Positions 2,081 through 25,879 of a stretch of 64,000 nucleotides of DNA are shown here, one piece after another (positions within the stretch are counted from its first letter, which is position 1; every line of letters starts with the position of its first letter). Made by a program: the position numbers and the translations under genes. This DNA is from Escherichia coli (lineage in GTDB: Bacteria; Pseudomonadota; Gammaproteobacteria; Enterobacterales; Enterobacteriaceae), in assembly GCF_041248615.1 (NCBI RefSeq), contig NZ_CP158426.1; one strand, 5' to 3'. The notes under the pieces were generated by a model. It was not told the origin of the DNA, searched no databases, and saw only the letters and a program-made list of their open reading frames with translations.

Positions 2081-2776
2081 TCAGCAATCCTCAATAATCA
2101 GATACACCGCTTTCACCGGACCATGAACCCCAACGACTTTGATAAGCTCAATATCCGCCGTTGAACTAGGGCCGCTAATGATGTTAATGCAGGACGGCAT
2201 TCGTTCACCGGCCTGCGCTTTCTGATGCAATTTTTCTGCGAGTTGCGCTACACGCGGCAGGATTGTGCTTTTACGCAGGATAAAAAGAGAAGATTCCGGG
2301 AGCAGGCTCAATGAACGCCCGCGCCCGGCGGCGGAAAAAAGAACCACTCCTCCCGATTCGGTTAAACCATATTCAGCATACACTACGCCAACTTTAGCCT
2401 GCTCTGCTTGTGATATGTTCTCAATACCTTTCGCCGGATCCCAAACAACGGCATTGCATTCCTGCTGCAAACGTTCGCTAATCCCCAATTCCTCCAGCCT
2501 CGTGTCATCGCTAATCACGACCGACTGATCTCCCAGCTCTTTACACAGTCGTATTGCAGCTTCTGCCGCCTTCGCCTCGCTGGTCAGTTCACAGCGCGTC
2601 AACATAACATCGCTGGCAAACTGGATAAACGCGTCACAGCGCTGCTGTTGGTTAAGTGCGGTAAGCCGCTCGTTAGCATAGTTGTTAAGCGGCGCATCTT
2701 CTGCTTGCGGTTCAAGTCGCAGCGGGCGACCCAGTGCCTGAGCAACGTTATTCAAAAATTCGCTCCGATTATCCAT
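2081..2776 (-). CDS. ykgG: LutC-like protein of the ykgEFG (LutABC-type) lactate-utilisation cluster
   Basis: ORF 2081..2923 trimmed to the internal start MDNRSEF (231 aa); that start overlaps the ykgF stop by 8 nt, consistent with translational coupling. Confidence 0.85.
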   Translation of the reverse strand: MDNRSEFLNNVAQALGRPLRLEPQAEDAPLNNYANERLTALNQQQRCDAFIQFASDVMLTRCELTSEAKAAEAAIRLCKELGDQSVVISDDTRLEELGISERLQQECNAVVWDPAKGIENISQAEQAKVGVVYAEYGLTESGGVVLFSAAGRGRSLSLLPESSLFILRKSTILPRVAQLAEKLHQKAQAGERMPSCINIISGPSSTADIELIKVVGVHGPVKAVYLIIEDC

Positions 2777-4196
2777 TCTTTTTCTCCTGCGCCTGATGTT
2801 TCTTAAACCAACTACGGAAACTCTCTCCGTCAGCTTCAGGAAGATCGCGTGCTTCCATCCAGTCGCTAATCGCGCCAAATTTGAGTGGTGTTTTGCCGCC
2901 ATTGATAAACCAGCTTGCCGCATGAGCGCCGGCCATCATCCCGACTTTCCACAATCCTGGATGACTATTGGCATAAGCGAACATTTTTATCGCCCGTTGC
3001 TCTGCTTTTGCGGTGATCCCTTTTTCAGCCATCACCCGACGATGACGCAAAATCAGTTTTGACAGCGGAATACGCACCGGACACACGTTGTCACAAGCAG
3101 TGCATAAAGAGCAGGCGTAGGGTAAATCTTTAAAATCTTTATAGCCGCCAAGTAGCGGAGAAATCACCGCACCAATTGGCCCTGGATAAATAGAGCCATA
3201 TCCATGACCGCCAATATGGCGATATGCCGGACAAGTATTCATACAAGCCCCGCAGCGAATACAGCGCAGCACATCCCGAAATTCAGAGGCCAGCACCTCA
3301 GAACGCCCGTTATCGACAATAACCAGATGAAACTCTTCAGGACCATCAACGTGCCCCGCTTCGCGCGGTCCTGTCAGCCAGGTGTTGTATCCCGTCAAAC
3401 GTGCACCAACGGCACTGCGCGCCAGCATGGTGATCAATACATCTACCTCGGCAAACGTGGGGGCAATACGCTCCATTCCCATCACTGCAATATGCGTTTT
3501 AGGCAGCGTGGTACACATTCGCGCATTACCTTCATTGGTCACCAGGCATACCGAACCGGTCTCTGCCACCGCGAAATTACAGCCGGTAATACCTATTTCA
3601 GCACTGAGGAAATCTTCGCGGATTTTTTGCCGGATGAATAAGGTCATTGCTTCAGGCGTTTCCGACCCCTCATAGCCCAGACGTTCGTGTAGCACCCGAC
3701 GGATCTGATGGCGATCTTTATGAATTGCCGGGACCACAACATGAGAGGGCGGATCTTGATCCAGCTGGAGAATGTATTCACCCAGATCGGTTTCAATCAC
3801 CTGAATGCCAGCATCCTGCAACACATGATTGACACCAATCTCTTCGGTCACCATCGATTTAGATTTCACCACCTTCCGGGCATTTTTGCGTTGGGCAACC
3901 TGTAAAATGTAGCGAGTGGCGTCTTCTTTAGTTTTTGCAAAATAGACGTGACCGCCGTTTTGCGTCACTTTTTCTGAGAGCTGGTACAGATAAGCGTCGA
4001 GATTACTCAGAACATGATCACGTATCTGGGCGGCCCGATCGCGCCACTCCTCCCAGTGCCCCAATTCATCGACCATTTTTTGCCGATTTGCCCCGATACG
4101 CTGCTGCGCGTTTGCCACCGCTTTGCGCATGATCGGATCTTCAATTTGCTGACGGATGCGTGTCTTAAAATCTGTATTACTGGTTTTGATCGACAT
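2769..4196 (-). CDS. ykgF: LutB-like iron-sulfur protein (4Fe-4S ferredoxin-type Cys clusters)
   Basis: 475-aa ORF with CxxCxxCxxxCP motifs (CIRCGACMNTCP, CSLCTACDNVCP). Confidence 0.9.
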   Translation of the reverse strand: MSIKTSNTDFKTRIRQQIEDPIMRKAVANAQQRIGANRQKMVDELGHWEEWRDRAAQIRDHVLSNLDAYLYQLSEKVTQNGGHVYFAKTKEDATRYILQVAQRKNARKVVKSKSMVTEEIGVNHVLQDAGIQVIETDLGEYILQLDQDPPSHVVVPAIHKDRHQIRRVLHERLGYEGSETPEAMTLFIRQKIREDFLSAEIGITGCNFAVAETGSVCLVTNEGNARMCTTLPKTHIAVMGMERIAPTFAEVDVLITMLARSAVGARLTGYNTWLTGPREAGHVDGPEEFHLVIVDNGRSEVLASEFRDVLRCIRCGACMNTCPAYRHIGGHGYGSIYPGPIGAVISPLLGGYKDFKDLPYACSLCTACDNVCPVRIPLSKLILRHRRVMAEKGITAKAEQRAIKMFAYANSHPGLWKVGMMAGAHAASWFINGGKTPLKFGAISDWMEARDLPEADGESFRSWFKKHQAQEKKNG

Positions 4197-8216: not shown

Positions 8217-8810
8217 ATGGAAAAATACCTGCATCTGTTAAGTCGGGGAGATAAAATTGGCCTGACATTGATTCGTCTGAGTATTGCGATTGTTTTTATG
8301 TGGATTGGGTTATTAAAGTTTGTCCCTTACGAGGCAGACAGCATTACACCATTCGTCGCAAACAGTCCACTAATGTCGTTCTTTTATGAACACCCGGAAG
8401 ACTATAAACAGTATCTGACTCACGAAGGCGAATACAAACCAGAAGCAAGGGCATGGCAATCGGCCAATAATACCTATGGTTTTTCCAACGGTCTTGGCGT
8501 CGTGGAGGTGATTATTGCTCTGCTGGTTTTGGCTAATCCTGTCAATCGCTGGTTAGGTTTATTGGGAGGGCTGATGGCATTTACCACACCGTTGGTAACA
8601 CTCTCATTTTTAATCACCACCCCGGAGGCATGGGTACCCGCATTGGGTGACGCTCATCATGGTTTCCCTTATTTATCCGGTGCTGGTCGCCTGGTATTGA
8701 AAGATACTCTGATGCTGGCAGGTGCTGTCATGATAATGGCAGATTCGGCGCGGGAAATTCTTAAACAACGCAGTAATGAATCCAGTTCAACGTTAAAAAC
8801 TGAATATTGA
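8217..8810 (+). CDS. rclC: Inner-membrane protein (DUF417-type) of the rcl operon
   Basis: ORF 8208..8810 trimmed to MEKYLHLL (197 aa); AGGA 9 nt upstream; multiple hydrophobic helices. Confidence 0.85.
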   Translation: MEKYLHLLSRGDKIGLTLIRLSIAIVFMWIGLLKFVPYEADSITPFVANSPLMSFFYEHPEDYKQYLTHEGEYKPEARAWQSANNTYGFSNGLGVVEVIIALLVLANPVNRWLGLLGGLMAFTTPLVTLSFLITTPEAWVPALGDAHHGFPYLSGAGRLVLKDTLMLAGAVMIMADSAREILKQRSNESSSTLKTEY

Positions 8811-8843
8811 TAATCCGAACACTGTCTGTTGTTCACTTTTTCA

Positions 8844-8881
8844 GGCGTCAGGCCCCCTTTCTGATGATGAAGCCTGACGCC
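8844..8881. terminator. Hairpin (ggcgtcaggc ... gcctgacgcc) between convergent rclC and the aldo-keto reductase; candidate bidirectional terminator
   Basis: 10-bp perfect inverted repeat read from the sequence, in a convergent intergenic gap. Confidence 0.5.
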
Positions 8882-8969
8882 ATATTACCGGAGATATGAC
8901 AGAGTGAAGATCAATATCACTCCCCTGTTAAAAGATTCTTGTCGTCTCAGGTAAAATACATGATTAATA

Positions 8970-9854
8970 TCAATCATGTATTTTTACAGCAAGACAACCA
9001 CGAACAAATTCAGGATTAAAATGTTTTACCGACTCCCCAACATAACCCAAATCAAGCGAACTAATTTGTGCCATTTCTTTCTCTGTCAGTGAGAAATCCC
9101 AGATAGCAAAATTTTCTTCGATACGCTGTTGATGTGTCGATTTCGGAATAACGACCACTCCCCGTTGAATATTCCAACGCAGAATGACTTGAGAAATCGA
9201 TTTTTGATGGGCATCTGCAATACTCTGAAGCAGATTATTTTCAAAGGGTTTATGTCGTCCACCACCTAACGGAGCCCATGCTTCAGGCTGCACGTTATAA
9301 TACTTCATGGTTGCCAGCGCCTCTGGTTGGGCAAAATAGGGATGCAACTCGACCTGGTTGACCATCGGTTTAACTCTTACCGTTTCACAAAAGTTCGCCA
9401 GAACATGAGGATAGAAATTGGAAACCCCAATTGCTTTTAATTTGCCCTCTTCATAGGCATCTTCGAGTGCACGCCACGCACTGAAATAATCGCGCATAGC
9501 CTGGTGCAATAAATAGAGGTCGAAGTATTCTAGTCCCGATTTTTTTAATGATGCTTCAATACCTGCTTTTGCCGTATCCTGATTCAACATATCCTGCACC
9601 CACAATTTAGACGTTATAAATAACTCATCTCGGGTACATAAACCTTCAGATATAGCTTCACGAACGGCTTCACCGACGGCATCTTCATTACCGTATACCG
9701 CTGCAGTGTCGATGAGTCGATAACCCGTGCGGATAGCATTCAACACTGACTGTTTGCACACGTCTTTATCGGTAACCTGAAAAACACCAAATCCCATCAT
9801 CGGCATTTTCAGATTGTTACTTAATACGGAAAATTCCACTGTCAGTCCCTCCAT
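8970..9854 (-). CDS. Aldo-keto reductase (2,5-diketo-D-gluconate reductase-like)
   Basis: 294-aa ORF with an AKR fold signature (LIDTAAVYGNE, IGVSNF); paralogous to the ORF at 17221..18072; the real start may be the GTG 15 nt downstream, which follows a GGAGG. Confidence 0.8.
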   Translation of the reverse strand: MEGLTVEFSVLSNNLKMPMMGFGVFQVTDKDVCKQSVLNAIRTGYRLIDTAAVYGNEDAVGEAVREAISEGLCTRDELFITSKLWVQDMLNQDTAKAGIEASLKKSGLEYFDLYLLHQAMRDYFSAWRALEDAYEEGKLKAIGVSNFYPHVLANFCETVRVKPMVNQVELHPYFAQPEALATMKYYNVQPEAWAPLGGGRHKPFENNLLQSIADAHQKSISQVILRWNIQRGVVVIPKSTHQQRIEENFAIWDFSLTEKEMAQISSLDLGYVGESVKHFNPEFVRGCLAVKIHD

Positions 9855-10462
9855 TAGGTATGAACAATGAGTCTACGTTAAAACGTAACCTCAAATTAGT
9901 ATGTGGATTTTGATATCACTTATGCAAAAAATTCATTAATAATGTAGGACTGAAACCTCTCTATTTTTGGGGCAATGAAGCAGACGCTATCAGTGCTTTT
10001 GCCTTGGGACTTGCTGTTTTTGATACACTTAAGGCCCAGGACATAACGAAAATGTGCGATATTACAAAGAATTAACGGAGAATGTGATGATCAGGCAGAA
10101 GATTCTACAGCAGCTCCTGGAGTGGATTGAGTGCAATCTTGAGCACCCTATTTCAATCGAAGATATCGCACAGAAATCTGGCTACAGCAGACGCAACATC
10201 CAGCTTCTGTTCCGAAATTTCATGCATGTGCCTTTGGGAGAATACATTCGCAAACGAAGGCTTTGTCGTGCCGCCATTCTTGTCCGACTCACCGCGAAAT
10301 CTATGCTTGATATTGCACTCTCTTTACATTTTGACTCACAGCAGTCATTCAGCCGCGAATTTAAAAAGTTATTCGGCTGCTCTCCCCGTGAATACCGCCA
10401 CCGTGATTATTGGGATCTCGCAAATATCTTCCCTTCTTTTTTAATACGTCAACAGCAAAAGA

Positions 10463-10467
10463 CGGAG
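10463..10467. repeat. 5-bp target-site duplication (CGGAG), left copy
   Basis: Identical 5-mer immediately flanks both ends of IS2. Confidence 0.7.
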
Positions 10468-10478
10468 TGGATTTGCCC

Positions 10479-11384
10479 CTATATTTCCAGACACCTGTTA
10501 TCACTTAACCCATTACTGGCCTGCTGCCGCAGATATTCCCGTGGCGAGCGATAACCCAGTGCACTATGCGGATGCCATTCGTTATAATGCTCGAACGCCT
10601 CTGCAAGGTTCTTTGCTGCCGTTAACCCGTCTGGTTTAGGCATGATACTGATGTAGTCACGCTTTATCGTTTTCACGAAGCTCTCTGCTATGCCGTTACT
10701 CTCCGGACTCCGCACCGCCGTGTTCTTCGGTTCAAGCCCCAATATCCGGGCAAACTGCCGTGTTTCATTAGCCCGGTAGCATGAACCATTATCCGTCAGC
10801 CACTCTACTGGAGACGCCGGAAGCTCGTTGCCGAAGCGGCGTTCCACCGCTCCCAGCATGACGTCCTGTACTGTTTCACTGTCGAAGCCGCCCGTAGTGA
10901 CTGCCCAGTGCAGTGCCTCACGGTCACAGCAGTCCAGCGCGAACGTGACTCGCAGTTTTTCTCCGTTATCACAGCGGAACTCGAACCCGTCAGAGCACCA
11001 TCGTTGATTGCTTTCTTTCACGGCCACTTTGCCAGTATGTGCCCGTTTCGATGGCGGTACAGCGGTTTTTCGCTCAAGCAACAGCGCATTCTGGCGCATG
11101 ATCCGGTAAACACGTTTGGCATTGATCGCAGGCGTACCATCAAGTTCGGCCTGTCTGCGAAGCAGCGCCCATACCCGACGATAACCATACGTGGGCAGCT
11201 CTCCGATAACATGGTGTATACGGAGAAGCACATCCGTATCATCTGAGTGACGGCTGCGGCGACCATCTTTCCAGTCATCGGTTCGTCTGAGAATTACGTG
11301 CAACTGCGCACGCGACACCCGGAGACAACGGCTGACTAAGCTTACTCCCCATCCCCGGGCAATAAGGGCGCGTGCGCTATCCAC
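10479..11384 (-). CDS. insD: IS2 OrfB (InsD), DDE transposase catalytic component
   Basis: 301-aa ORF starting [15 protein letters not shown]...; overlaps insC as expected for programmed -1 frameshifting in this family. Confidence 0.9.
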
Positions 11385-11707
11385 TTTTTTGCACGCCCGT
11401 ATTCAACGGCTTCTTTAAGGAGTTCATTTTCCATCGTTTTTTTGCCGAGCAGGCGCTGGAGTTCTTTAATCTGCTTCATGGCAGCAGCAAGTTCAGAGGC
11501 AGGAACGACCTGCTCTCCTGCGGCCACAGCAGTAAGACTTCCCTCCTGGTATTGCTTGCGCCAGAGAAATAACTGGCTGGCTGCCACACCGTGTTGCCGG
11601 GCAACAAGGGAGACCTTCATTCCCGGTTCAAAACTCTGCTGAACAATAGCGATCTTTTCCTGTGTAGTACGCCGTCTGCGTTTCTCCGGTCCTAAGACAT
11701 CAATCAT
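11342..11707 (-). CDS. insC: IS2 OrfA (InsC), helix-turn-helix transposase component
   Basis: ORF 11342..11752 trimmed to [13 protein letters not shown] (121 aa). Confidence 0.9.
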
Positions 11708-11798
11708 CTGCTCTCCAATGACTAGTCTAAAAACTAGTATTAAGACTATCACTTATTTAAGTGATATTGGTTGTCTGGAGATTCATGGGGCCAGTCTA

Positions 11799-11803
11799 CG
11801 GAG
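11799..11803. repeat. 5-bp target-site duplication (CGGAG), right copy
   Basis: Matches the left copy at 10463..10467. Confidence 0.7.
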
Positions 11804-12404
11804 TGTAGATTAGTCAACTTTCCTGAGACACCTATTTTTGGCAATTCATTTAAATATGATATTGAAGTATCGAATAAATCACCGGATGAAGAAGTCAAAC
11901 TGCGACGTCATCATTTAGCCAGATGTATGAAGAATTTTAAGACGGATATCTATTTCGTCTCCACATTCGAACCGTCAACAAAATCGGTCGATTTGCTCAC
12001 AGTTGAAACTTTTGCCGGTACGGTATGCAAACAAACCGATTCAGAGATGTCGAAAGAGTGGACAATTAACCGAGGACTGTATGCCTCTTTCCGCTATGAA
12101 GGTGAGTGGGAGCACTACCCTGAATGGGCGCGAAACCTCTATCTGATGGAATTACCTGCCAGGGGGTTAGCCAGAGTGAACGGCAGTGATATTGAGCGAT
12201 TTTATTACAATGAAAACTTCGTCGAAATTGATAGCAATAACATTGTTTGCGAAATTTTTATCCCCGTTCGCCCGGTTTAGCCTGTAAATCCATCACATAA
12301 GATTTACCCTACCCTGCCACCGTCTAATCGGTACCAGGGTAGGTATTCAGTAAATAATGGCACTGCGCATGTCAACGCCATTATTATTTATTACATCGTC
12401 GTTT

Positions 12405-15400
12405 TTATTTCTCCTCAGCACCTTCAGTATCTGCAGGAACGGCGTTAATTGTCACAGTCACTGGTTTCATTTCATACCCTCCATATGTCAAAGAGTTGAA
12501 TGTGAATGTGTATGTACCTGGCTTGTTGGTACTAAATGTACGCGTGATTTTCCCGCTCGCGAAATGGTCATTTTTCGACGGCAGGAACTGATAATCCGCC
12601 TCTGTCACCCCTTCCGGAGCCTCAATGTCGACCCACATGGTTCCTCCTACGGGGTTGACACCCGACATCAGAGTAACCGTCAGTGTTGCAGTAGTCTTCC
12701 CGTCCGCCACCAGAGAATCTACACGCTCTGGAGATGCAGCGAGCTCCGCGTTTTTATCATCCGCGACGAATTTAGATTCGGCAGTTTTCGTCGATTCCTG
12801 ACCGTCGGCCTGTTCCACTTTCGCCGTGAGTGTATATGTCGCTGCGACACTGGTCGTGGCGGTGAAAATAGCCTGTCCTTGCTCATTCGTTGTCGCCGTC
12901 CCATCGGGATCCAGAGCTAAATTTGCCGGGCTAGCAGTCAGCGTCACTTCGCTATCTTTCACCAAATTCTTATTGGCATCAGTCACCGTAACTTTATACG
13001 TTTGTTTGGCTTTGCCGTCCGCCAGTGCATAGTTGCCAATCACCTCAATACTGGAGACGGTTGCGGTAGCCTTATCGGCTACAAACGTTATAGTCTGCGT
13101 ATTCGAAGGCTGGCTATTCCCTGCCGATGCCGTGATCTCATACGTTCCGGCAGTCACTGAAACCACCTGCAACTCTGCTTTCCCCTCATCGTTGGCTTTC
13201 ACCCAGACATTATCGCCAGTAAGCGGCTTGACACCCCGGGGCAGATTAAAGGTCACCAGAGTTCCTGGAACAGGGTTACCGTTTTTATCCTCAACGGTCG
13301 CCGTCAGCGTAAAGGCATCTTTGCCGTTTGCCACTTTTTGAACGGCGGTGTCTACCTGCAGGTTTGCCTGACCGGTGCTGGCATCCGCGTTGAATTTCAC
13401 CGTGACCGTCTTCTGAGCACCATTCACCGAAGCGGAAATATAGTGTTCTCCCGCAACCGTTGACATAAGCTCAATGTCCACTTTACCTGCCGCATTGGTT
13501 GTTACTGTATTCCCCGTCTTGCTAGTCACACCCTGCGGTAAAGTCAGCGTAACTTCTTGTCCCTGCAACGGGTTACCATAGCTGTCCACGACGGTCAGGG
13601 TTACCTGGTTAGCAGACTGTCCATTTGCCAGTTGGTTATTCACCTTCACCGCCATATCACTGATCACTGCCCGGGAAGCGTCGCCTGCAACATTCAGCAC
13701 CAGTGGCTGAGCAACGGCATTTTGGCCGTTCACGCGTGGCATCACAGACAACTGACCTGCAGCCGATCCCAGCGTTAAGGTCGCCACGTAGACCCCATTA
13801 CCTTTCTCTGTCCAGTTTCCTGCTGAAGGACGCTCACTCCCCGTGCTGGCGGCACCGCTAAACACTGGTGCATCTGGCTTCAGCCCGGTGACCGGGTTCC
13901 CGTACGCATCCTTCACGGTGAAGGTGAGTTCCGTCGTCGTTTTGACGACCGGAGCCTTATTGTCCGCAACAAGCGTAGAGTTAGCTGATGACATCTCTCC
14001 AGCGATGACCGTCAACTGCGCGGCTTCGGTGGCTGCTGGCTGGCCATTGAAGAGAGGCATGACGCGAAGCTCGCCCGTCTTTCCGCCTGTGGTCAACGTA
14101 GCAACATAGGAACCGTCACCTTTTTCGGTCCAACTGGAAACGGTCGCCCCTTCAGAGGCGGTCCCCGTCAAACTTGCCGACAACGAAAGACCACTGATAG
14201 CGTTGCCATGTGCATCTTTTGCAATAAGCGTCACGGTTGTGCTTTCGCCGGCTTTTACGTGATCTTCTGCGACGGAGACTTTCGACTGGTTTGAAGATAA
14301 CGCATCAGCCACCACGGTTACTTTTGCCGCATTTGCTGCCGCATCCTGTCCATTTAGCTTCGGCATAACTTCTAATTCACCCGCCGTAGAGCCGAGAGTA
14401 ATTTGCGCAGTCCACGTCCCATCACCATTATTTGTCCAGCCCGATGCCGTAGAACCTACAGCAGCGGCACCCGCTAATGACGGCGCTTCCGGCGTGAGGC
14501 TGGTCACAGGGTTGTCATAGGCATCTTTTGCCGTCCAGATTGCCGTAACTGTACCGCCGACCACCGGTTTATCAGGATTCAGGGTGATGGACGAATGTGC
14601 TGCATCAAGCGGCCCGGCAACAAACTTCAGCGTTTGTTGTAATGTGCCCAGCTGATACTGCTCGCTGAAGGCACGCACAACAACGTTTCCGGCACGGGTC
14701 GAAGAAACCGTGGCGCTGTAAACCCCAGGTTTTATTTCCGAAATGGCACCAACGGTAACACCATTAGTGTCTTGCGGAACAAGTCGCAGGCGGCTGGCTT
14801 CTCCCGTCACCGGATTACCCTCGGAGTCCACCGCAGTCAGCGTCAGCGTGTAGGCTTGCTGACCATCAGCAACCACGTCACCTGACGGCTCGTTAGCACT
14901 CAGGGTGGAGTTTGCCACATCCATCATCGTGGCCCGCAGTTCTGCAGTGACGGTTTTGCTCATGCCATCAACGCTAACAGTAATCGTTGCCTCACCTGAC
15001 TGCGTTCCGGTAGTAAAGACAGACTGATACACCCCTGCTTCAGTTTCGGTGAACTCACCCAGTGTTGGCTTTGCCTGTGATTTAGTGGCCTTCAGAGAAC
15101 GAGTCACAATATTTCCAGCCGGTTTGAAAGTTAGTTCAGTCTTGATCTGATCTTTCATGCCCGTGACTGGCTGACCCTCGGCGTCGCGCAGAGACAGCAC
15201 CAGCGGCTTTTGCTCATTACCGTTAGCAAGCATTTGAATACGGCTCTGACCGTCAAGCGTTAACGCCGTACGATCGGCGCTCATACCAGCTCCGCTAATA
15301 ACCACTTCTGTCTGCACACGTTTCGAGGCATTGCCTTTGTTATCGTAGGCAATCGCTGAAACCGCATAATAATTGTCTTTGCCTGCCTGATAAGCCGGGA

Positions 15401-16655
15401 GCGTCACTTGCCACTGATTGCCCTGCCCCGTAATTTTTCCGCCTGCGGCCAGCAAAGACGGCGCTTCCCATTGCACATTTTTCAGACCGTGAGTTGCTTT
15501 GCTGACCACAAGCCCCAGGGAAACCGTCTGGCCGCCCTTGCCTTCAATACGCTCAGGCAGAGCAATACGGATCACTTCAGATTTGCGATACTCAAGAACG
15601 ATATTGTTATTACGCTCAACCAGGTCATAGCGGCTGCCTGCCAGCATTCGACGCTCGCGAATGCTGTCTGTATCGAGTTGTTTTTCCAGAGGTTCGCCAA
15701 TCCGATAATTAACTTCCAGGCCAAAGCGAGTGTCATTCTCACCACTCTTGCCCTGCTTATGCCCAGCACTCAGGGTCAGAAGAGGCACTGGCGTGTAATT
15801 CACTTCAGCGGTAATCGCATGTGGATCTTTCTGGCGTTTATCTTTACCAAACAGCCCGACTTCATCGCCATAATACTGTTCATACATCAGGCTTGCGCCA
15901 AGCTGCGGCCAGGCAGGTAAATAGCCCTCAGCACGAATATCCCAGCCATTCGCCGGGCGTTCCTGATAATCCTCAACATCCGGCGATTTTTTCCAGCCAG
16001 AAGCCCGGATATAACCATTGGCGCTCAGTTTCAAATAATCACGCCAGTATTCCGCACCAACACCAATGCGGGTATGACTACGGGATAAATCATGATCGAT
16101 AAAAGTATTCACCCCCGCCATCCAGTCATTTTCTGAAAAATGACGCCAGCCAAAACCAATATTTGACTGAGTACGATCGTCGGTACGATGTATTGCCCCC
16201 TGAGTGAATAACATATTTGTCGGTGTATCATAAATCGGATAAAGCATTTCCAGCGAAGAGTCCTTCAGCGAGAAATTTTTATCGACATTCAGTTTGACGC
16301 GCGCAGTACCATATTTCCCGAGCCACTCCTGAATTTCCTGGTTAGCTTTAGCGGTGGCCATTCCGGTAATAAAGTTACGTGTCGCATCGCTATCTGGCTG
16401 ACTGCTTAAAAATGTCCCGGCATTAGCGGCAAGCGACGCGACATTTTTCTCCACGTTATTATCAGCAGTTACCGTAGTATTTTCCATGCTCAACCGTGGC
16501 TGAACCGCATGCTGCGCACGTGCTGCCATTACTGGCGTAAAGGTGACAGCGAGTGGAAAAAGAACCTGAACAGAGATATTTGCCCACGCCACGCAGCGGG
16601 CCAGAACTGAATAACGAAATCGTGGTTGTTTATGACCTGTTTTATAACGTGACAT
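12405..16655 (-). CDS. eaeH: Intimin/invasin-family outer-membrane adhesin with a long array of Big domains; full length (1416 aa)
   Basis: Single uninterrupted 1416-aa ORF; N-terminal signal/beta-barrel region followed by repeated Ig-like segments. Confidence 0.9.
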   Translation of the reverse strand: MSRYKTGHKQPRFRYSVLARCVAWANISVQVLFPLAVTFTPVMAARAQHAVQPRLSMENTTVTADNNVEKNVASLAANAGTFLSSQPDSDATRNFITGMATAKANQEIQEWLGKYGTARVKLNVDKNFSLKDSSLEMLYPIYDTPTNMLFTQGAIHRTDDRTQSNIGFGWRHFSENDWMAGVNTFIDHDLSRSHTRIGVGAEYWRDYLKLSANGYIRASGWKKSPDVEDYQERPANGWDIRAEGYLPAWPQLGASLMYEQYYGDEVGLFGKDKRQKDPHAITAEVNYTPVPLLTLSAGHKQGKSGENDTRFGLEVNYRIGEPLEKQLDTDSIRERRMLAGSRYDLVERNNNIVLEYRKSEVIRIALPERIEGKGGQTVSLGLVVSKATHGLKNVQWEAPSLLAAGGKITGQGNQWQVTLPAYQAGKDNYYAVSAIAYDNKGNASKRVQTEVVISGAGMSADRTALTLDGQSRIQMLANGNEQKPLVLSLRDAEGQPVTGMKDQIKTELTFKPAGNIVTRSLKATKSQAKPTLGEFTETEAGVYQSVFTTGTQSGEATITVSVDGMSKTVTAELRATMMDVANSTLSANEPSGDVVADGQQAYTLTLTAVDSEGNPVTGEASRLRLVPQDTNGVTVGAISEIKPGVYSATVSSTRAGNVVVRAFSEQYQLGTLQQTLKFVAGPLDAAHSSITLNPDKPVVGGTVTAIWTAKDAYDNPVTSLTPEAPSLAGAAAVGSTASGWTNNGDGTWTAQITLGSTAGELEVMPKLNGQDAAANAAKVTVVADALSSNQSKVSVAEDHVKAGESTTVTLIAKDAHGNAISGLSLSASLTGTASEGATVSSWTEKGDGSYVATLTTGGKTGELRVMPLFNGQPAATEAAQLTVIAGEMSSANSTLVADNKAPVVKTTTELTFTVKDAYGNPVTGLKPDAPVFSGAASTGSERPSAGNWTEKGNGVYVATLTLGSAAGQLSVMPRVNGQNAVAQPLVLNVAGDASRAVISDMAVKVNNQLANGQSANQVTLTVVDSYGNPLQGQEVTLTLPQGVTSKTGNTVTTNAAGKVDIELMSTVAGEHYISASVNGAQKTVTVKFNADASTGQANLQVDTAVQKVANGKDAFTLTATVEDKNGNPVPGTLVTFNLPRGVKPLTGDNVWVKANDEGKAELQVVSVTAGTYEITASAGNSQPSNTQTITFVADKATATVSSIEVIGNYALADGKAKQTYKVTVTDANKNLVKDSEVTLTASPANLALDPDGTATTNEQGQAIFTATTSVAATYTLTAKVEQADGQESTKTAESKFVADDKNAELAASPERVDSLVADGKTTATLTVTLMSGVNPVGGTMWVDIEAPEGVTEADYQFLPSKNDHFASGKITRTFSTNKPGTYTFTFNSLTYGGYEMKPVTVTINAVPADTEGAEEK

Positions 16656-24865: not shown

Positions 24866-24915
24866 TTCAAAATTCGACGAATTAACGATATTTGTCTGAT
24901 TAATAATCAGACCGG

Positions 24916-24955
24916 ATTAATGTTGGTGTATTTATTACACCAGCATTAATTTTCC
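24916..24955 (+). terminator. Rho-independent terminator candidate after ykgMO (attaatgttggtgta ... tacaccagcattaat, then T-run)
   Basis: Inverted repeat followed by TTTT, read from the sequence. Confidence 0.55.
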
Positions 24956-25879
24956 TGAGGATGTATCTTCCTGTTCATTTAAGGTCAACTGCCTGACGTT
25001 TCTCTCCGAATATTCCATTATATTAATGTTGACTTGTTGACCAGGTGCGCCCTGTATGCTGGCATCAACTCTCTTTTAGACTGAACACGCCACTCAGTTT
25101 CCTCCCTTTGCGACGCAGCCTGCATTTACACTCAAACGGTTAAGATGATAAATGTGGTAAATCTGTTGGTACTGACATAAAAACGTTTACGCCACAGGAA
25201 CGGCCTGATCCACCGGTAACCCCATCGCCGACGTTCGAGTGCCAGTTAGAGTAACGCGCACAGATGACTGAATGCAGTGCCCTGGCAAAGAGGCCATCGT
25301 TCCTGTGACAACTGGCAGTCTTCGTTTAACTTCACTTAATTTGGCTCTTAGGGGGCTTACCGGACAGATGACGTACTTACACCTGTTTAATTTTTCATCA
25401 CTTATTGGGATGAACACCCATAACCATTTTGTGCGGCATGTTAATCCATTAAAACACCTTACTGATTGGCAAATCATCTTTAATTATGACTCATGATAGT
25501 TTTATATTCTATTTCTTATCATTTAAACTTGTTTTTTTACTAGTCCATTACACAACACATTAAGACTATTCCTAACACCTCAGGGCAAAGTTCCTGGCTA
25601 ATATAAAATGCAAGTAAGAATTGAACGTTATATTGCCAATAACCTTATGAAACTGAATGTCTTTTTCTTCTTATCAAAAAAGCAATATTTTCATTTTTTG
25701 TAAATATTGACTTAACCATGGAATTCCTTTTCTGTTCACATATTGACACTCATCAGGAAAAAAACATAAATTTAAACCTAATCGAAATAATTAAAACTTA
25801 ATCTCGTTTAACCTATATTGATATGTGCTACGTATCTTATTTACTTCCGATTTACTAAAGAAACTGAATGTACCTGTAA

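Follow-up and report, generated by a model that had tools for sequence, protein, structure and literature searches.

The stretch of DNA analysed here (the window, 64 kb from the chromosome of Escherichia coli NRZ14408) contains ykgA, a gene encoding a Rob-like regulator of the AraC family, split in two by an insertion sequence (IS) of the IS2 type. Both pieces of the gene lie on the plus strand. The 5′ fragment (10087-10467, codons 1-127, a pseudogene CDS in PGAP) encodes an AraC-type bipartite helix-turn-helix (HTH) DNA-binding domain (residues ~2-106; Pfam HTH_18 at 2.7e-20 over residues 27-106, and HTH_AraC at 7e-17) followed by a linker of 21 residues. The 3′ fragment (11804-12280, codons 128-285 plus the stop), which has no start codon or promoter of its own, encodes the whole GyrI-like effector-binding domain (Pfam GyrI-like, 7.6e-13) and falls within a second PGAP pseudogene CDS (11792-12280). 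The gene is bordered by a divergent aldo/keto reductase gene (8970-9839) and by a convergent gene for the FdeC adhesin (fdeC, 12405-16655). RefSeq describes the locus in NRZ14408 as two pseudogene fragments flanking an IS3-family transposase; it is already marked as a pseudogene in public annotation.

The IS interrupts ykgA after codon 127 and has the 5-bp sequence CGGAG on either side (10463-10467 and 11799-11803), so that the first-pass annotation of this DNA, made from the letters alone, was right in describing a complete IS2-type element with intact duplications. Excision of the IS together with one CGGAG yields an uninterrupted open reading frame (ORF) of 858 nt, encoding a Rob-like protein of 285 aa, and this restored ORF is 100% identical to the intact ykgA of at least 40 complete genomes, among them isolate 362 from Madrid. 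Since the empty site of isolate 362 carries a single CGGAG, the two copies in NRZ14408 arose by duplication of the target site and are not a repeat present by chance.

Anatomy and identity of the inserted element

The element (10468-11798, 1331 bp) has its transposase genes on the minus strand and presents the features that mark members of IS2: a length of ~1331 bp, imperfect inverted repeats of 41 and 42 bp, overlapping orfA and orfB genes with an A6G site, and a 5-bp target duplication. The right and left inverted repeats (IRR, 41 nt, 10468-10508; IRL, 42 nt, 11757-11798) share 31 matching positions with one gap. orfA (11342-11707, minus strand) encodes a protein of 121 aa with an HTH_Tnp_1 domain (Pfam, 7e-19), and orfB (10479-11384, minus strand) one of 301 aa with a DDE integrase core (Pfam rve at 8e-20, rve_3 and HTH_21). 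Both are intact, OrfB being devoid of internal stops, and their overlap holds an AAAAAAG site (~11384-11390, IS position 409), at which OrfA and OrfB are predicted to be joined by -1 programmed frameshifting; PGAP covers the transposase with one 'programmed frameshift' fusion CDS (10479-11707).

Alignment to the IS2A copy of K-12 was gapless and placed the element within the IS2 type, although it is not the K-12 copy. The two are alike in their length of 1331 bp, their inverted repeats, the order of orfA and orfB with the A6G site, and the 5-bp target duplication, but they are separated by 60 substitutions without any indel (95.49% nucleotide identity). One difference lies within the last 41 nt at the IRR end and one substitution in IRL (IS position 13); OrfA departs from K-12 InsC at a single residue and OrfB from K-12 InsD at 13 of its 301 residues. 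By the ISfinder convention, two copies are the same element when they share >95% nucleotide or >98% amino-acid identity. The nucleotide value is marginally above the former limit, and that for OrfB (288/301, 95.7%) is below the latter, and we consider that the ykgA-resident element, judged by its sequence, is best called a variant or isoform of IS2. The PGAP product names also differ, being 'IS3 family transposase' here and 'IS3-like element IS2 family transposase' for K-12-type copies. No further IS2 copies were found inside the 64-kb window; the NRZ14408 chromosome has 13 IS2-type matching places, one of which (100990-102320) is identical to the copy in ykgA.

The interrupted regulator and its truncated product

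The restored YkgA fits the Rob-like class of two-domain regulators, with a bipartite HTH domain and a C-terminal GyrI-like domain colinear with those of Rob. Its PDB matches are Rob (1.2e-38), SoxS (4.8e-27), RamA (2e-20) and MarA (1e-17). As in Rob (PDB 1D5Y, 7VWY), to which YkgA residues 5-283 align colinearly, an HTH domain is followed by a ~20-residue linker and a GyrI-like domain, but the identity between the two proteins is only ~39%. The first-pass annotation had placed the break exactly at the boundary between the two halves, and it does fall there: the GyrI-like profile begins at the junction residue (E127/C128), matching profile positions 2-155 of 155. The corresponding point in Rob is E127/H128, close to the end of the Rob 1-133 truncation that has been studied experimentally (PMC9178005).

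The 5′ fragment runs into the right end of IS2 to form a chimeric ORF on the plus strand (10087-10554), which comprises 127 residues of YkgA and 28 encoded by IS2, with a TAA stop inside the IS. The IS-derived tail had been noticed before, at about 29 residues and on an ORF beginning at GTG (10054-10554); the count is 28, and the annotated start, which is preceded by a Shine-Dalgarno sequence, is the ATG at 10087. Because the DNA-binding domain is complete and the native start, the Shine-Dalgarno sequence and the upstream region are untouched by the insertion, a protein of 155 aa could be made. That the whole DNA-binding domain persists in this ORF, as had been claimed, is borne out by the alignment of all 107 residues of SoxS to YkgA residues 2-106 and by an AlphaFold model of the chimera, which places seven helices within residues 2-104 (pLDDT 72-93); the 49 residues beyond position 106 are linker and IS-derived tail, and the model falls below a pLDDT of 50 over residues 121-155. 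From sequence and model, the truncated product (hereafter the stub) would have the HTH-only architecture, namely a complete seven-helix domain and no second domain. The exact 155-aa sequence is found on only 6 contigs in a collection of 15 billion proteins.

MarA, SoxS and RamA have evolved to act as single-domain proteins, and their control lies in how much is synthesised and in turnover by Lon. The stub resembles them in that its 127 YkgA residues hold everything that aligns with SoxS (107 aa) and with the core of MarA and RamA, including the seven predicted helices; it differs in being an accidental truncation that ends in a 21-residue linker and a 28-residue IS-derived tail without confident structure. 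In recognition helix 3, YkgA reads SRRNIQLLF, against SKW(H/Y)LQR(M/L)F in Rob, SoxS and RamA; R36 and L40 of YkgA align with W42 and R46 of MarA, whereas Rob, SoxS, RamA and MarA keep the W and the R. Helix 6 of YkgA (SQQSFSR) is conserved. W42 and R46 are reported to be important for strong binding of MarA to the mar promoter (PMC11633057), and with R36 and L40 in their place, binding of the stub to mar, sox or rob boxes is unlikely.

Distribution of IS2 within ykgA

We surveyed 5426 complete genomes, in 4631 of which ykgA was matched at ≥80% coverage, and searched for intragenic IS2 with pairs of synthetic queries representing both orientations. IS2 lies within ykgA in 37 genomes, at ~13 sites (nt 147, 186, 260, 374, 381, 426, 490, 574, 609, 610, 614, ~650 and 693) and in both orientations, and seven other insertions with 5-bp duplications occur at the ykgA locus. 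The possibility that IS2 always enters the gene in the same orientation was rejected: 27 genomes (8 sites) share the orientation seen in NRZ14408, against 10 genomes (5 sites) with the opposite one. Nor did the sites give any signal that IS2 spares the DNA-binding domain: a binomial test gave P = 0.23 for the 3 of 13 that fall within the first 37% of ykgA. IS2 at exactly nt 381 is present in four of the 5426 genomes: NRZ14408, 21AH004, 21AH006 and 21AH007.

Isolate 362 is near-clonal to NRZ14408, with 2 mismatches in 10,469 bp to the left of the insertion and none in 17,003 bp to the right, and because its site is empty, the insertion in NRZ14408 must be recent, having occurred after the two separated. 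The recent date proposed in the first-pass annotation is thereby upheld, but the proposal that the event is probably strain-specific holds only in part, since the same nucleotide is occupied, in the same orientation, in 21AH004/006/007, and IS2 sits at ~12 other positions of ykgA elsewhere. These three genomes are ~1.3% diverged from NRZ14408 over 42 kb, and their IS2 copies differ from that of NRZ14408 at 26 of 1331 positions. The presence of different IS2 variants at one nucleotide in diverged lineages suggests an insertion hot spot, and a single ancestral insertion shared by NRZ14408 and 21AH004 was judged less likely, because isolate 362 lacks the insertion and the two genomes are 1.3% diverged.

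Such an ancestral insertion could have passed between lineages when a short segment was exchanged by homologous recombination, its IS being overwritten later by gene conversion from other IS2 copies of each genome, and two observations speak for it: the flanks of the insertion are identical over 2496 bp to the left and 1149 bp to the right, in contrast to the ~1.3% difference of the surrounding 42 kb, and donors for conversion are plentiful, NRZ14408 having 13 IS2 matching places and 21AH004 having 15. Nevertheless, we regard this history as rather improbable. With isolate 362 empty at the site and identical to NRZ14408 over 17 kb on one side, it requires both an import confined to a 3.6-kb tract and conversion over the full length of the IS, the 26 differences between the two IS copies being evenly spread along the element. 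The identical flanks are expected in any case, because the ykgA allele around the insertion is a common one, which at least 40 genomes share at 100% identity. Moreover, a second site, ~55 bp upstream of ykgA and with the duplication CTTAG, repeats the pattern in two unrelated backgrounds, and a third lineage has IS2 just 7 bp away from nt 381, again in the shared orientation.

A sequence resembling the IS2 end may contribute to the preference. IS3-family elements can insert beside sequences that resemble their own ends, as described for IS911. In ykgA, an IRR-like motif (TTTCC(TG)AGACACCT, 11819-11833, plus strand; TTTCCTGAGACACCT) begins 16 nt beyond the insertion point, on its right side, and agrees with the corresponding part of IRR (TTTCCAGACACCT) in orientation and almost in register. 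Its local-alignment score of 20 is within the top 1.7% of 3800 background windows, which is weak evidence. Three independent insertion sites, at nt 374, 381 and 426, flank the motif, which recalls the pattern of IS911. The match is short, however, covering just 13 nt and including a 2-nt gap; its background probability is ~0.017, and other ykgA sites lack it, no IR-like sequence scoring above background beside nt 609, 614, 693 or 947 or at the site ~55 bp upstream. The motif may explain the local hot spot. With different IS2 variants at the same nucleotide and in the same orientation at two sites, this locus provides a compact natural system in which to study how IS2 chooses its targets, and this by-product of the analysis is perhaps more useful, to transposon biologists, than the disruption itself.

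Discussion

We think it likely that the structure described here is an ordinary disruption of ykgA, brought about by the recent insertion of an IS2 variant that resides in this chromosome in multiple copies. Its position would have been set by the target preference of IS2 in an AT-rich locus, possibly guided by the IR-like motif nearby, and not by selection for a particular protein product. ykgA would be functionally split, with its 5′ part still transcribed and translated from the native signals into a chimera made of the DNA-binding domain, the linker and the unstructured IS-encoded residues, and with the GyrI-like domain gone. The net effect would most likely be the loss, or a strong reduction, of effector-responsive regulation by YkgA, leaving a pseudogene. 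Elsewhere, some lineages carry a frameshift or nonsense lesion in ykgA in addition to an IS2 copy, and the overall pattern of lesions looks as expected of a decaying, dispensable gene. As it stands, the event matters little, being another case of an accessory regulator broken by an IS, here in a clinical E. coli with multidrug resistance.

The consequences would be very different if the 155-aa product were a stable DNA-binding-only protein of the size of MarA or SoxS, acting constitutively on the targets of YkgA. A mobile element would then have rendered constitutive an AraC-family regulator that is otherwise ligand-gated, in an isolate resistant to carbapenems and colistin, and the allele would open a first way into the function of YkgA, the fourth paralogue of the MarA/SoxS/Rob group. 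Much of what such a protein would need is in place: a complete DNA-binding domain aligned with all of SoxS, a predicted seven-helix fold and native translation signals. MarA, SoxS and RamA show that the fold can work without a second domain, and work by Ariza and colleagues in 1995 reportedly found an N-terminal fragment of Rob to be active when overproduced. The C-terminal domain of Rob also acts as an off-switch, through 'sequestration-dispersal' (PMC9178005), so that its loss from a protein of this kind might in principle bring de-repression. [quoted passage not shown] The stub in addition bears a foreign tail that is predicted, like the last part of the linker, to lack structure; the substitution of MarA W42 and R46 makes marbox promoters unlikely targets, and no targets of YkgA are known (PMC2064960). 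The way in which the allele is distributed points in the same direction, since no more than 4 of 5426 complete genomes and 6 contigs of the large protein collection carry it, which makes it very rare, since three lineages have IS2 inside the DNA-binding domain, and since the repeated use of one nucleotide and one orientation speaks for target preference, while selection for a truncation would need neither. This evidence, indirect as it is, leans against the stub being a constitutively active regulator, and we hold that reading to be unlikely.

A broader version of the same idea would take the linker of ykgA as a recurrent breakpoint, at which lineages repeatedly generate DNA-binding-only constitutive regulators of a YkgA regulon, stable enough to act, with the IS2 hot spot serving as a naturally occurring switch for domain removal. 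The linker has indeed been truncated independently by three routes, namely IS2 insertion at codons 125-127 (three lineages), a T6-to-T5 frameshift leaving 118 aa and a stop at Q123 leaving 122 aa, and ORFs of HTH-only length are found in E. coli on 332 (118 aa), 76 (122 aa) and 6 (155 aa) contigs. The first 116 codons are, moreover, almost invariant among alleles (0-1 aa differences). These recurrent truncations could be read as convergence; we consider a switch of this kind very unlikely.

The insertion might alternatively act through transcription, either because read-through or a hybrid promoter of IS2 alters the expression of the neighbours or because antisense transcription silences the ykgA stub. 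The transposase genes face the 5′ half of ykgA and the aldo/keto reductase gene; read-through across IRR would therefore run against the coding direction of the stub but along that of the reductase gene. IS2 can form hybrid promoters, as Jaurin and Normark reportedly found for ampC in 1983, and the orientation of NRZ14408 is the one seen in 27 of the 37 genomes that have IS2 inside ykgA. Against this, a promoter scan of positions 9800-12450 gave 2 promoter-like sites, where shuffled sequence would give 3.5, and neither IS junction had one; by inspection, there is no -10-like hexamer 16-18 nt from the TGGAAA of IRR at the junction between IRR and its flank, and fdeC, past the IRL end, is convergent with ykgA. 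The ratio of 27:10 counts genomes and not events, the corresponding numbers of sites being 8 and 5, and both orientations occur. We give a transcriptional effect very little credence. The same 9800-12450 scan found no terminators, and an Rfam scan of positions 8500-13000 found no RNA family.

The reading that we favour, an ordinary disruption, has a parallel in K-12, whose ykgA (b0300) is the same gene, is likewise annotated as a pseudogene and has its 3′ end truncated by a mobile element. The K-12 lesion is different in kind: an IS3A-associated deletion, which starts at ykgA nt 687 and reaches halfway into eaeH/fdeC, has removed the DNA between, so that K-12 keeps the HTH domain and ~60% of the GyrI-like domain. 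In NRZ14408, by contrast, both halves of ykgA and fdeC are intact, and precise excision of the IS would reverse the event.

A recent IS2 insertion splits ykgA

The gene ykgA, which encodes a Rob-like regulator of the AraC family, is interrupted by a 1331-bp IS2-type insertion sequence (10468-11798) with its transposase genes on the minus strand, and the two pentamers flanking it are identical copies of the target-site duplication CGGAG (10463-10467 and 11799-11803). The terminal inverted repeats (41 and 42 nt) are imperfect, matching at 31 positions. Both orfA (11342-11707, minus; Pfam HTH_Tnp_1) and orfB (10479-11384, minus; Pfam rve, rve_3 and HTH_21) are intact, and their overlap contains the slippery site AAAAAAG. 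The complete IS2 with intact CGGAG duplications proposed in the first-pass annotation is thus borne out. Aligned to IS2A of E. coli K-12, the copy is colinear, with 95.49% identity, 60 substitutions and no indels, and is therefore a complete IS2-type element, yet a diverged variant; OrfA differs from its K-12 IS2A counterpart at 1 of 121 residues and OrfB at 13 of 301. In structure the element is IS2 in every respect, and solely its identity to the reference is marginal. PGAP names its product 'IS3 family transposase', the name for K-12-type copies being 'IS3-like element IS2 family transposase'. It is the only copy inside the window.

Deleting the IS and one CGGAG in silico restores an uninterrupted ORF of 858 nt (285 aa). 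Judged by its sequence, reconstituted YkgA has the architecture of a Rob-like regulator: it is colinear with Rob across residues 5-283 (E = 1.2e-38), its residues 2-106 align to the entire SoxS (107 aa), and Pfam places HTH_18 at residues 27-106. The insertion breaks the gene after codon 127, equivalent to Rob E127/H128, and the GyrI-like profile starts (position 2 of 155) precisely at the junction residue, so the original description of a split exactly between the HTH and GyrI-like halves is accurate. The upstream frame runs from ATG 10087, which is the PGAP start and has GGAG 7 nt 5' of it, to a TAA (10552-10554) in the IS right end, and would yield a chimera of 155 aa, 127 from YkgA and 28 encoded by the IS. 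This ORF had been correctly read as keeping the whole DNA-binding domain, but not as carrying about 29 IS residues or starting at 10054, which is an in-frame GTG upstream of the annotated ATG. The 3' half (11804-12280) lacks its own start codon, and the ORF listed from 11771 opens at a TTG within the IS.

The window is 100% identical to positions 4131666-4195665 of the chromosome (NZ_LT599825.1) of E. coli NRZ14408, a multidrug-resistant clinical isolate with resistance to carbapenem and other drugs (PMC8694152), described as carbapenem- and colistin-resistant in the genome paper as cited in PMC10790570. Thirteen places on this chromosome match the IS, one at 100% identity. RefSeq treats the HTH and GyrI-like parts of the locus as pseudogene fragments on either side of an IS3-family transposase with a programmed frameshift. 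The insertion is recent and of the ordinary IS2 type, and the pseudogene status of the locus is already in the annotation. Over the 10,469 bp left of the IS, isolate 362 (NZ_OW967178.1, Madrid) has 2 mismatches to the window, and over the 17,003 bp right of it none; its ykgA is intact, equal to the reconstituted gene, with a single CGGAG. A nearly clonal relative thus has a true empty site, and the insertion is therefore recent, as first suspected. At least 40 more complete genomes carry the intact allele at 100% identity.

The insertion had also been thought probably strain-specific, which holds only in part, since the same nucleotide (nt 381 of intact ykgA) is occupied in three other genomes. 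Four of 5426 complete genomes carry IS2 at exactly this position: NRZ14408 and 21AH004, 21AH006 and 21AH007, Tokyo isolates from cats and dogs. These are not close kin of NRZ14408 (530 differences across 42 kb, about 1.3%), being identical to it solely over 2.5 kb left and 1.15 kb right of the IS, and their IS copy has 26 differences from its copy, spread evenly along the element. Because NRZ14408's own relative, isolate 362, has an empty site, the most economical reading of these sequences is that two different IS2 variants inserted independently, hitting one nucleotide in one orientation. Recombination with later gene conversion of the IS is a less probable explanation.

The truncated product as a hypothetical regulator

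That the ykgA stub acts as a constitutive, gain-of-function HTH-only regulator is a legitimate hypothesis, but an unsupported one that we consider improbable. In its favour, the DNA-binding domain, start codon and upstream region are all untouched; MarA, SoxS and RamA show that a fold of this kind can work by itself; and the C-terminal domain of Rob is an off-switch (PMC9178005), the loss of whose counterpart might likewise favour an active stub. An AlphaFold model of the chimera, built on a shallow alignment of four sequences, predicts seven helices in residues 2-104 (pLDDT 72-93), but residues 121-155 fall below 50. Rob truncated to residues 1-133 is reported to form inclusion bodies, and its C-terminal domain to shield the N-terminal one from Lon and ClpYQ (PMC9178005). 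The likeness of the chimera to MarA and SoxS is restricted to domain content. Recognition helix 3 reads SRRNIQLLF in YkgA and SKW(H/Y)LQR(M/L)F in Rob, SoxS, RamA and MarA, so that R36 and L40 occupy the positions of MarA W42 and R46, residues highlighted for strong mar promoter binding (PMC11633057). With these replacements, binding to mar/sox/rob boxes is unlikely even if the protein is stable, and reconstituted YkgA, by sequence, lacks the helix-3 residues of marbox-type recognition. Moreover, YkgA has no assigned function or targets according to PMC2064960, K-12 has its own truncated ykgA, and in three lineages IS2 has hit the DNA-binding domain itself (3 of 13 sites), its sparing of that domain not being significant (P = 0.23).

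HTH-only-length ORFs arise by three distinct linker lesions: a T6-to-T5 frameshift (run at 10437-10442, codons ~117-119; 118 aa, 332 contigs), a stop at Q123 (codon 123; 122 aa, 76 contigs) and the IS2 chimera (155 aa, 6 contigs). This recurrence would cut towards a retained role for the stub. However, the 118-aa and 122-aa alleles (among comparison loci L003 and L006) both bear a second lesion, an IS2 farther downstream, as would be expected if a dispensable gene were decaying step by step at mutable sites, although the stub may keep a role despite these second lesions.

Between allele groups (loci L003-L008) the 5' part of ykgA (10087-10467) is 94.9-98.9% identical (97.7-98.9% in four of five), with 0-1 amino acid changes between groups in codons 1-116, whereas identity in the 3' half (11804-12280) drops to 85.6-88.7% in most groups. 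One common allele has 852 nt rather than 858. The contrast could mark a recombination boundary beside hypervariable fdeC, or the effector domain may be under diversifying selection.

Probable IS2 target reuse at the ykgA locus

The most useful by-product of this analysis is evidence of site-specific IS2 target reuse at the ykgA locus. The gene is detectable in ~5040 of the 5426 complete E. coli genomes (coverage of at least 80% in 4631), and a search with two synthetic queries, each fusing an upstream anchor to either IS end, placed IS2 inside it in 37 genomes, at ~13 positions and in both orientations. Twenty-seven genomes share the window's orientation (nt 147, 186, 374, 381, 426, 609, 614 and 693) and ten have the opposite one (nt 260, 490, 574, 610 and ~650); positions not read directly from sequence were deduced from the span of each match and could be a few nucleotides out. 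IS2 also lies outside the gene, ~55 bp and ~140 bp upstream of the start codon and 89 bp beyond the gene end. A crude uniform estimate from overall IS2 load, ignoring shared ancestry, predicts ~4 carrier genomes for a region of this length against the 37 observed. The locus appears to be one that IS2 favours as a target.

At the site ~55 bp upstream (duplication CTTAG; IS2 at 2648-3978 of loci L011 and L012), KOr024 and EC130, whose genetic backgrounds differ, hold distinct IS2 variants. Thus, two sites have same-nucleotide, same-orientation pairs in unrelated backgrounds, with variants differing by 26 nt (nt 381) and ~57 nt (CTTAG), which points to site-specific hot spots or to frequent gene conversion among IS copies. 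Ten bovine isolates carry IS2 at nt 374, 7 bp from nt 381 and in the same orientation. Sites 374, 381 and 426 flank a target motif, TTTCC(TG)AGACACCT, here TTTCCTGAGACACCT (11819-11833, starting 16 nt from the insertion point), which resembles the IS2 right-end core TTTCCAGACACCT and shares its orientation and register. It is a possible cause of the cluster but no more than a lead, since the match does no better than the top 1.7% of background windows, and the motif is absent from the other ykgA-locus IS2 sites.

Neighbouring genes

Promoter and terminator scans around the locus gave nothing above chance, and Rfam no match. Transcription of the IS2 transposase runs towards the 5' half of ykgA and towards the aldo/keto reductase gene divergent from it (8970-9839, minus), so antisense read-through is conceivable, but it is unsupported. 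This reductase gene is intact here; K-12 (ykgQ) and many other lineages keep just a 129-bp remnant. On the other side, fdeC (eaeH; 12405-16655, minus) is full length (1416 aa) and highly polymorphic: among complete genomes only isolate 362 shares the window allele, the second-best match has 98.0% identity, and along the gene 21AH004 diverges by ~3-5% per kb.

RefSeq annotates other decayed genes in the window: a frameshifted hypothetical gene (1288-1838) at the site of ykgH in 21AH004, a frameshifted ykgL (24900-25125), an MFS transporter gene broken by an internal stop (39636-40763), a partial second copy of ykgR (43324-43392) and a LysR fragment (43673-43903) adjoining tRNA-Thr (44031-44106). 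At the same tRNA-Thr, 21AH004 has instead an island that encodes a reverse transcriptase together with an AbiE toxin-antitoxin pair.
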